64,000 nucleotides of DNA from a phage. The stretch's first letter is position 1. Each line of letters opens with the position of its first letter. The notes under the pieces were generated by a model. The model had not been told where the DNA came from. It ran no database searches and was given only the letters and a program-made list of their open reading frames with translations. The position numbers and the translations under genes were made by a program. Of the stretch, positions 15,692 to 16,830 are shown piece by piece. The stretch lies in the sequence record PZ583739.1; one strand, given 5' to 3'.

Positions 15692-15773
15692 TTTATTCTC
15701 CAGTGTTTTATTTGGTAACTCAGTATGGAATCATTATGCCTTAAAGCAGGGGGCTTGTATACCCCCTTTTTAA

Positions 15774-16205
15774 TTAAATTTCAAATTCTTTTCGGAAGTT
15801 GGAAGCATAAGACTGAACTGATGCTTTGTTGAATCCAAACTCACGCACAATCATATCAATAACAGCTCTGCGAGCAGCACCATTAGACATATTAACAGTT
15901 TTGAACATATCATAGCATAAATCTTTGTTGCTCATACCGGAGCGTTTAGGTGCTTTTGGTTCAGCTTTAGGAGTAGGTTTAACTTCTGGTTTAACCTGTC
16001 CATCATTCAGACCTTTAAAAATTTTACCTGCCAGAGTTGCCAGTTTAGCAGCTTCGCCACGAGTGATACCAAATACTGCCGGGTTAAATGAAATACCTTC
16101 AGCTGTCAGACGTTTGAAGAACATACGTGCTGCGGATTGTGCTTCAGCTTCAGAAGAGTTGTTTAATGCCAGTTTAACATACTTAACCAGTTTTGAAGTT
16201 TTCAT
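15774..16205 (-). CDS. hypothetical protein, paralog 1 of a duplicated pair
   Basis: C-terminus ARRAVIDMIVREFGFNKASVQSYASNFRK matches the next gene; start set at internal ATG. Confidence 0.45.
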   Translation of the reverse strand: MKTSKLVKYVKLALNNSSEAEAQSAARMFFKRLTAEGISFNPAVFGITRGEAAKLATLAGKIFKGLNDGQVKPEVKPTPKAEPKAPKRSGMSNKDLCYDMFKTVNMSNGAARRAVIDMIVREFGFNKASVQSYASNFRKEFEI

Positions 16206-16288
16206 TTTATTATCCCGTTTGTTTATTTGGTAACTCAGTATGGGATAATTATACACTATCCCACCTGGAAGTAAAACACTTTTCTCAA

Positions 16289-16714
16289 TTATTTTTGAGC
16301 TTTGCGGAAGTTGGAAGCATATGACTGAACAACAGTCTTTTTGATATCATGGGTGGTAACCAGAACATCAATCAGAGCACGACGAGCTGCATTATCATTC
16401 ATATCAATTTCTGCAAATGCCTGGAAGCAAATGTCACGAGCGTTACCAGATTTGGACTGGATTTTTTCTTCTTTAACTTCTTCAATTGGGAATTCAATCA
16501 TTTCAGCTTGGATTAATTCAATAATAGATTCTTTTGACTGTTTGGTGTTTACCTTCAGTTCAGAATTAAGGGACTTGGCGATGGCAACAATCTGGGTTGA
16601 AGTCAGATGGATAAGTGCATCTTCACGAATGCAGATTTCACATACTTCGTCGGCAACCATTTTGTTAGTGATGCGGGTAACAGAGAATGCAGAGGTCAGG
16701 GTCAGAAAGTTCAT
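16289..16714 (-). CDS. hypothetical protein, paralog 2 of a duplicated pair
   Basis: C-terminus ARRALIDVLVTTHDIKKTVVQSYASNFRK; start set at ATG with GGAGAAATAAA RBS. Confidence 0.45.
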   Translation of the reverse strand: MNFLTLTSAFSVTRITNKMVADEVCEICIREDALIHLTSTQIVAIAKSLNSELKVNTKQSKESIIELIQAEMIEFPIEEVKEEKIQSKSGNARDICFQAFAEIDMNDNAARRALIDVLVTTHDIKKTVVQSYASNFRKAQK

Positions 16715-16830
16715 TTTATTTCTCCAAAGTTTTGTTTGATTCAGTGTGTAACTCAATATGGAATCATTATGCACCCGGTCAATTCGGATGTACACTACTT
16801 TTTGAAGAAAATTTCAAATTTATTCAGGGT

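Follow-up and report, generated by a model that had tools for sequence, protein, structure and literature searches.

The closest described counterparts of the repeat analysed here are the promoter early stem-loop elements (PeSLs) of T4-type phages. A PeSL joins an AT-rich stretch to a sigma-70-like early promoter, carries a stem-loop (upstream of the promoter, over the -35, between the boxes, over the -10 or downstream) and ends with a Shine-Dalgarno sequence and ATG (PMC2839356, PMC4122927). These elements are conserved over about 100 bp, are concentrated in hyperplastic regions, lie at the junctions of insertions and deletions (indels) and are able to form mini-circles (PMC2839356, PMC4122927). 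The present analysis concerns a stretch of 64,000 nucleotides (nt) of phage DNA from sequence record PZ583739.1 (the window, numbered on one strand, 5' to 3'), in which a sequence of about 35 bp recurs upstream of four small minus-strand genes. Three of the copies are clustered and the fourth lies between genes 23 and 24. An earlier note on the window, made from its letters alone, had likened the repeats to PeSLs, and this reading is supported: all sequence-level features given for PeSLs in the two papers are found, with the stem-loop missing from copy 4. Judged by sequence comparison, the four copies are probably PeSL-type regulatory cassettes of a Gaprivervirus that act as homology patches for the exchange of ORFans.

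The window itself is assigned by its similarity to the SP18/VR7 group of the T4-type genus Gaprivervirus. Its region is 92-98% identical to the corresponding DNA of the Gaprivervirus phages SP18, VR7, DK-13, CJ20, RZ and UPEC01, and the segment from 56.0 to 58.4 kb matches DK-13 at 100% identity. According to the SP18 annotation, 15.3-17.5 kb corresponds to the interval from e.6 to the tRNA genes, a hyperplastic region of small genes that all lie on the minus strand. Copies 1-3 of the cassette are located here among ORFans with no Pfam family, and copy 4, in the position between genes 23 and 24 where it was first noticed, also adjoins an ORFan.

A repeat finder returns the four copies as a single family (family 1; 15705-15743, 16220-16258, 16738-16776 and 56925-56963), with 74-92% identity to the reference copy over 39 nt. 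The recurrence reported in the earlier note is borne out by a 28-nt pattern that has three matches in the window with at most three mismatches and none in 100 shuffles. The full cassettes span about 50-90 bp (Table 1). Read on the minus strand, each begins with an AT-rich stretch and continues through GTnTAC, a spacer of 17-18 nt, (C/T)ATAAT, the leader core CCATA(C/T)TGAGTTA, an A-rich stretch and the Shine-Dalgarno sequence to the ATG. The proposed arrangement of a minus-strand early promoter with a conserved leader thus applies to every copy: all four fit GTnTAC-N17/18-(C/T)ATAAT, positioned 41-51 nt upstream of an ATG that has a Shine-Dalgarno sequence. The ribosome-binding site is GGAG or GGGA in 4/4 copies, 6-8 nt ahead of the ATG; the GGAG sites would be of a type that RegB, a nuclease encoded by SP18, cleaves. 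The AT-rich element takes the form of a run like AAAAAG(T/G)(A/G)G that precedes the -35 in the aligned copies, with A22 and A23 invariant.

Three of the four cassettes carry a stem-loop, each placed differently. For cassette 1, a GC hairpin overlapping the -35 had been predicted at 15749-15766, and GGGGG-TATACAAG-CCCCC indeed encloses the -35 hexamer GTATAC. The -10 of cassette 2 lies within the loop of a 13-bp stem (GGTGGGATAGT/ATTATCCCATAC). Cassette 3 opens with a hairpin resembling an intrinsic terminator (16854-16838), which is followed by a T run, the AT-rich stretch and then the promoter. A stem around the -10 is a feature of early promoters in these phages at large, present at 7/12 promoters of the window and at about half of the 36 in SP18 (z of -2.5 to -7 in shuffles restricted to the spacer). 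The stem arms vary from site to site while their complementarity is kept, as in TGGGATA/TATCCCA, GTGGGAC/GTCCCAC, ATAGGGT/ACCCTAT and TCAGTATGGA/TCCATACTGA. Pairing of the discriminator with the Shine-Dalgarno sequence was considered as a means of silencing read-through and rejected; it amounts to 8 bp in copy 2 and 5-6 bp in the others, and is broken in the chimeric copy of DK-13.

The PeSLs of RB49 and phi1 (PMC2839356) share with the window cassettes the composite layout, in which the stem-loop is mostly found around the -10 or between the two hexamers, and conservation along roughly 100 bp, and are likewise dense between the ORFans of hyperplastic regions and located at indel junctions of close relatives. 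They differ in their -35, which is TTGACA there and the T4-type GT(G/T)TAC here, and in the GGGG/CCCC stem that characterises them, whereas the transcribed leader core CCATACTGAGTTA is the best conserved part of the window cassettes. Promoter activity, terminator activity and mini-circles were demonstrated for the RB49/phi1 elements (PMC2839356), whereas the window cassettes are known from sequence. The gene behind cassette 1, which encodes 101 amino acids (aa), has homologues in RB49/phi1 (46% identity; RB49 ORF198), and the RB49 homologue stands behind TTGACA-N17-CATAAT with GGGGATAT/ATATCCCC around the -10, in the same layout as window cassette 2. The same ORFan is therefore found behind a lineage-specific PeSL in each phage. 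The PeSLs of T4/PST and KVP40/nt-1 (PMC4122927) resemble the window cassettes in promoter type (TTTACW-N17-TAYWAT in T4/PST), in having group-specific variants and in their association with gene swaps in hyperplastic regions; that paper differs in scope, since the SP18/VR7 group, leader replacement at orthologous sites and a leader core common to several genera are not covered there. Lambdoid morons and integron gene cassettes offer a more distant parallel, in that a single gene moves together with the signals for its expression, or into a site where these are provided. Morons, however, have no conserved flanks mediating their movement, and integrons depend on an integrase and attC sites, whereas no recombinase is implicated for the window cassettes. 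Among the papers that a literature search on SP18 and VR7 promoters brought up, none seems to describe these cassettes.

In each of 34 full-length Gaprivervirus records, a 52-nt cassette query hits 9-14 places, and most of the other matching phages have a single one; the leader family with the core CCATACTGAGTTA is amplified or homogenised in this genus. The complete SP18 genome holds 13 copies, all of them on the early strand (13/13) and each directly upstream of a start codon. The genes behind them are srd, gp040, nrdC.8, gp097, gp131, the orthologues of the three clustered genes, the open reading frame (ORF) between genes 23 and 24 (the 23/24 ORF), 30.8, frd.1, gp274 (upstream of motA) and gp281.

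The comparison of cassette flanks in related phages, which the earlier note had named as a check, is positive and places cassettes at the junctions of gene presence and absence. In DK-13 and CJ20, an extra gene of 98 aa lies between the two genes that follow cassettes 2 and 3, with a cassette copy on either side, and the window has one copy (cassette 2) at this location. Cassette 2 follows the upstream DK-13/CJ20 copy through TATAATTATCCC (to TATCCC), continues with 21 nt common to both copies (CATACTGAGTTACCAAATAAA) and then follows the downstream copy (CAAACGGGATAATAAAATG). On this alignment, cassette 2 is a chimera of the copies on either side of the 98-aa gene and the apparent footprint of an exchange between direct repeats, in either direction. 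A further junction occurs in RZ, in which the promoter and leader of cassette 1 are fused straight to the leader of e.6, with the joint at CTGGA(G/T)AATAAAA. RZ and DK-13 are the genomes that lack the 101-aa gene, and the junction is located at the 3' end of cassette 1; of about 34-36 Gaprivervirus records, about 30 have this gene and 16 have the 98-aa gene. All four combinations of presence and absence of the two genes occur among four genomes. Other breaks relative to SP18 fall at the -35 or the Shine-Dalgarno sequence of the promoters at 8375, 11183 and 12384, and 5/11 cassettes lie within 50 bp of a break in synteny between the window and SP18 (P about 0.02 against random positions).

As a self-contained expression unit, each cassette would supply a UP-like AT-rich stretch, an early promoter read by host sigma-70, a short A-rich leader and a GGAG-type ribosome-binding site. 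Judging from established T4 biology and from published PeSLs, early transcripts would be started by host RNA polymerase 6-8 nt past the -10, and the stem-loops or terminators in most copies would limit read-through from the upstream gene. Each small ORFan would thereby be provided with its own early transcript. The same 50-90 bp occur 9-14 times per genome in one orientation, and the copies may therefore also serve as homology patches. The phage recombination machinery would delete, insert or swap ORFans between cassette copies, a proposed process whose outcome is what is seen in the relatives.

The leader also sets this genus apart at orthologous sites. In Dhakavirus AnYang, which belongs to a sister genus, the sites corresponding to the 23/24 ORF and nrdC.8 have an early promoter with the pan-T4 leader beginning TACTATAGACCTATCAAC, and the Gaprivervirus leader therefore stands where the sister genus has an ordinary one. 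These alignments suggest that one leader version may have spread among the copies within a genome, by gene conversion or selection. The copy between genes 23 and 24 is present but is not a recent arrival, since other genera have both the gene and an early promoter at this site and differ in the leader alone. Outside Gaprivervirus, the core is found in at least three consecutive promoters of Morganella phage MP1 (Gualtarvirus), in about five places overall, and in one copy in Dhakavirus IME341, upstream of its frd.1 homologue. Across 11 aligned cassettes from the three genera, CCATACTGAGTTA is invariant. The leaders of the frd.1 orthologues are 78% identical between MP1 and SP18 and 81% identical between MP1 and IME341 (25/26 core positions match in the latter alignment), compared with 61% for coding DNA and 43-47% for protein. 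A leader better conserved than the frd.1 coding sequence argues either that the leader itself is under constraint or that the cassette has spread horizontally. Leader replacement at orthologous sites and conservation of the core across genera both go beyond the published accounts (PMC2839356, PMC4122927).

Several observations weigh against reading the copies as PeSL-type homology patches. Cassette 4 has no stem-loop, and the hairpin of cassette 1 has no U tail on the early strand. At the clearest junction the core shared by the two copies is just 21 nt, and deletion and insertion cannot be told apart as the direction of the event. When breakpoints are compared with gene upstream regions in general, the enrichment at the 11 cassettes relative to SP18 is not significant (P = 0.16); the claim of recombination therefore rests on the anatomy of the junctions and not on statistics. 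Conservation of the core in a distant genus also suggests that it has a function of its own, which the cassette explanation does not name.

That function is the subject of an account compatible with the PeSL reading, in which CCATACTGAGTTA is a cis-element acting in promoter escape or pausing, in mRNA stability or translation, or as a protein-binding site that overlaps the start site, and recombination between copies is a side effect. We regard this as possible without favouring it. The invariance of the core in 11 cassettes of three genera, the frd.1 leader that outconserves its coding sequence and the core's presence at several consecutive MP1 promoters all speak for such a role, as does the exact reverse complement of the core carried by some spacers (for example TCAGTATGGA...TCCATACTGA). 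The search for a mechanism points the other way. At the gathering threshold, Rfam returns just two tRNAs for the whole window, the leader matching no known RNA family, and three sub-threshold matches within 15200-17000 lie off the leader at 16797-16948, on the terminator hairpin and its vicinity. No strong structure is predicted downstream of the predicted start, and no trans-encoded RNA complementary to the core is found in the window or in SP18 outside promoter spacers. The sole candidate partner tried, the C-terminal domain shared by the proteins encoded behind cassettes 2 and 3, was rejected as a DNA-binding partner of the core; it has no detectable match in MP1, although MP1 has the core. 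Horizontal spread of cassettes together with gene conversion could moreover yield the same pattern of conservation.

More doubtful is the proposal that CCATACTGAGTTA, a core of 13 nt overlapping the predicted start site, is a specific recognition element and not simply promoter context, whether as an operator or recombination target of a phage protein or as a signal in the 5' leader governing what becomes of a subset of early mRNAs. If this were true, the element would be common to Gaprivervirus and to distant Morganella/Providencia phages and would define a set of co-regulated or co-mobilised early genes. A metagenome-wide spread of the core was considered and rejected: among 41 viral-contig stretches, a promoter-cassette context is seen only in the isolates VR20, VR25, VR26, IME341 and MP1, and the remaining stretches have no such context and look like chance matches.

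It is very improbable that the repeats have no wider role and merely reflect the local tandem duplication of one gene and its promoter. Copies 2 and 3 do stand ahead of paralogues, and a DNA repeat of 135 nt (75.6% identity) covers the final ~15 codons of either paralogue together with the cassette downstream of it. The paralogy noticed earlier is nevertheless partial: the C-terminal blocks of the two proteins are 47% identical over the last 58 aa (E 7e-17), but their N-terminal halves are unrelated, leaving the likeness confined to the C-terminal third. Duplication would require a single gene family, whereas unrelated genes follow copies 1 and 4, the 13 SP18 copies are distributed genome-wide and mostly ahead of unrelated genes (srd, nrdC.8, 30.8, frd.1), and the core also occurs in Morganella phage MP1. 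A chance resemblance among AT-rich promoter-like sequences can be dismissed, because a generic sigma-70 scan of 14500-18000, which also recovers three of the four cassette promoters, gives 11 sites against 7.5 expected and is uninformative alone, whereas the shuffles and identities given above, and the placement of all copies on one strand directly upstream of start codons, are far from chance.

Understood as PeSL-type cassettes, the four copies would extend the PeSL picture to another T4-type genus and provide a clean example, at the sequence level, of gene gain and loss by exchange inside cassettes, with each lineage keeping its own homogenised promoter-leader version. For annotation, the cassette would mark around a dozen early transcription units in each genome and help explain the patchy ORFan content of these phages, which find use in therapy and biocontrol. 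That the leader core is so deeply conserved raises a small question, and a testable one, about how early gene expression is controlled.

Table 1. Positions of the cassettes, of the genes behind them and of other early promoters in the window.
Feature	Position	Strand	Description
Cassette 1	15692..15773	-	Upstream of 101-aa gene; -35 GTATAC 15762-15757, -10 CATAAT 15738-15733
Cassette 1 leader	15732-15692	-	Core CCATACTGAGTTA, Shine-Dalgarno CTGGAGAATAAA
Cassette 2	16206..16288	-	Upstream of 143-aa paralogue; -35 TTTTAC 16276-16271, -10 TATAAT 16253-16248; leader 16247-16206
Cassette 3	16715..16854	-	Upstream of 141-aa paralogue; -35 GTGTAC 16795-16790, -10 CATAAT 16771-16766
Cassette 3 leader	16765-16715	-	Core CCATATTGAGTTA
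Cassette 4	56912..57000	-	Upstream of 93-aa gene; -35 GTTTAC 56982-56977, -10 CATAAT 56958-56953; leader 56952-56912
101-aa ORFan (phrog_7474)	15386..15691	-	Behind cassette 1
143-aa ORFan (phrog_18416), paralogue A	15774..16205	-	Behind cassette 2
141-aa ORFan (phrog_9997), paralogue B	16289..16714	-	Behind cassette 3
93-aa ORFan (phrog_6003)	56630..56911	-	Behind cassette 4; orthologue of JS98 ORF173c / VR7 ORF190c
Early promoter, family-2 leader	1785..1842	-	GTTTAC-N18-TACTAT-TATCCCATCAACTACTGAGGAG
Early promoter, family-2 leader	8320..8375	-	7-bp stem ATAGGGT/ACCCTAT encloses -10; SP18 synteny break at -35
Early promoter	11127..11183	-	Stem GTGGGAC/GTCCCAC around -10
Early promoter, family-2 leader	12327..12384	-	SP18 synteny break at Shine-Dalgarno
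Three early promoters, -35 starts 20029, 20316, 20626	19972..20626	-	Stem-loop around -10 in each
Early promoter	21493..21553	-	Stem GTGTAGG/CCTACAC around -10

With the four cassettes included, the promoter pattern has 14 matches on the minus strand of the window, of which 12 are convincing and lie ahead of a start codon, and two on the plus strand, while shuffles lead to an expectation of about four per strand. Five of these sites (1793, 8327, 12336, 20262 and 20581) had been listed in the earlier note as related copies of the repeat. They are early-promoter-like as proposed, but their leaders belong to another family (family 2), TATC(C/T)CATCAACTAC..GAGGAG, which is shared by 741 T4-type phage records, Tequatrovirus and Klebsiella phages among them. 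By their leader sequences they are of the ordinary pan-T4 type and not diverged members of the four-copy family. Three further early-promoter sites, at 11183, 20029 and 21553, were absent from that list. The gene downstream of the promoter at 8320-8375 is presumably denV, recognised by eye. At the position of the promoter at 11127-11183, SP18 has an extra gene, gp131, and a family-1 cassette inserted between the -35 and the Shine-Dalgarno sequence.

Two of the three promoters within 19972-20626 precede internal-protein-like genes that begin MKTYQEFI. In all, four small minus-strand genes (starts 7854, 8644, 20257 and 20571) begin M(K/L)TY(Q/K)EF(I/L) followed by (T/A/N)E(A/S), forming the repeat families D1/D2. 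The repeated 5' ends of these genes coincide with an SP18 synteny break at 7821-7856, at which SP18 has an additional 613 bp. We take this start to resemble the capsid-targeting N-terminus of T4 internal proteins. Polymorphism at the internal-protein locus of T-even phages has been attributed to conserved flanking sequences (Repoila et al. 1994, as cited in PMC4122927). As far as that citation describes the locus, it is similar in that small early genes are swapped between conserved 5' sequences, the window MKTYQEFI genes likewise standing behind early promoters. It differs in that the shared sequence there includes the coding N-terminus, which is a capsid-targeting peptide, whereas the window cassette repeat is non-coding.

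The C-terminal domain of the two paralogues is also found by itself. A protein of 71 aa encoded upstream of motA in SP18 (164095-164310), behind a family-1 cassette, consists of nothing but this shared domain, which the two window paralogues join to unrelated N-terminal halves. All Gaprivervirus records contain the domain; weak matches to it occur in Acinetobacter phage ZZ1 and its relatives, and it has no sequence match in Pfam or the PDB.

The spacer between the 101-aa gene and e.6 (15314-15385, minus strand) contains GTGCTTTA-N12-TAGTAT, with a hairpin of 8-9 bp (GGGAACAT/ATGTTCCC) over the -10-like hexamer. This element resembles a middle promoter of the MotA type that carries a stem-loop, comparable to the 'PmSL' of phage nt-1, although the bases preceding TGCTT depart from the consensus. 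In cassette 4, the AT-rich upstream part (56977-57000, minus strand) overlaps the plus-strand late-promoter motif TATAAATA of gene 24 (56989-56996). This motif lies 25 nt ahead of the gene 24 start codon, on DNA common to the divergent early promoter of the 93-aa gene.

Gene content in the late-gene part of the window changes by a route other than the cassettes, the indels relative to SP18 carrying endonuclease-like genes there. Relative to SP18, three insertions with endonuclease-family genes are present, at 23603-24277 (minus strand), 25083-25811 (minus strand) and 50014-50505 (plus strand), and their genes match phrog_655 (homing endonuclease), phrog_681 (endonuclease) and, weakly, an endonuclease VII-like family. 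A promoter-like site at 49835 lies at the edge of the third insertion.

The two tRNA genes of the window (18379-18452 and 18455-18528, minus strand) form a set unlike those of SP18, which has three tRNAs, and EAWsc9 (Arg, Ile). A hairpin of the form GGGACC-TTCG/TGAG/CGAA-GGTCCC, flanked by A and T runs, occurs at 36220-36250, 56598-56628, 58300-58330 and 60019-60049; two of these copies directly follow genes 23 and 24 and look like bidirectional terminators. A repeat of the form TTGGGTGTCCTCCTCTT..GCTAAGGAA occurs three times on the minus strand (12659-12691, 12865-12897 and 13156-13188), each time stopping just ahead of a start codon. These repeats seem to comprise conserved C-terminal codons and a ribosome-binding site between small tandem genes, and one of them lies near a 251-bp indel relative to SP18 (12640).

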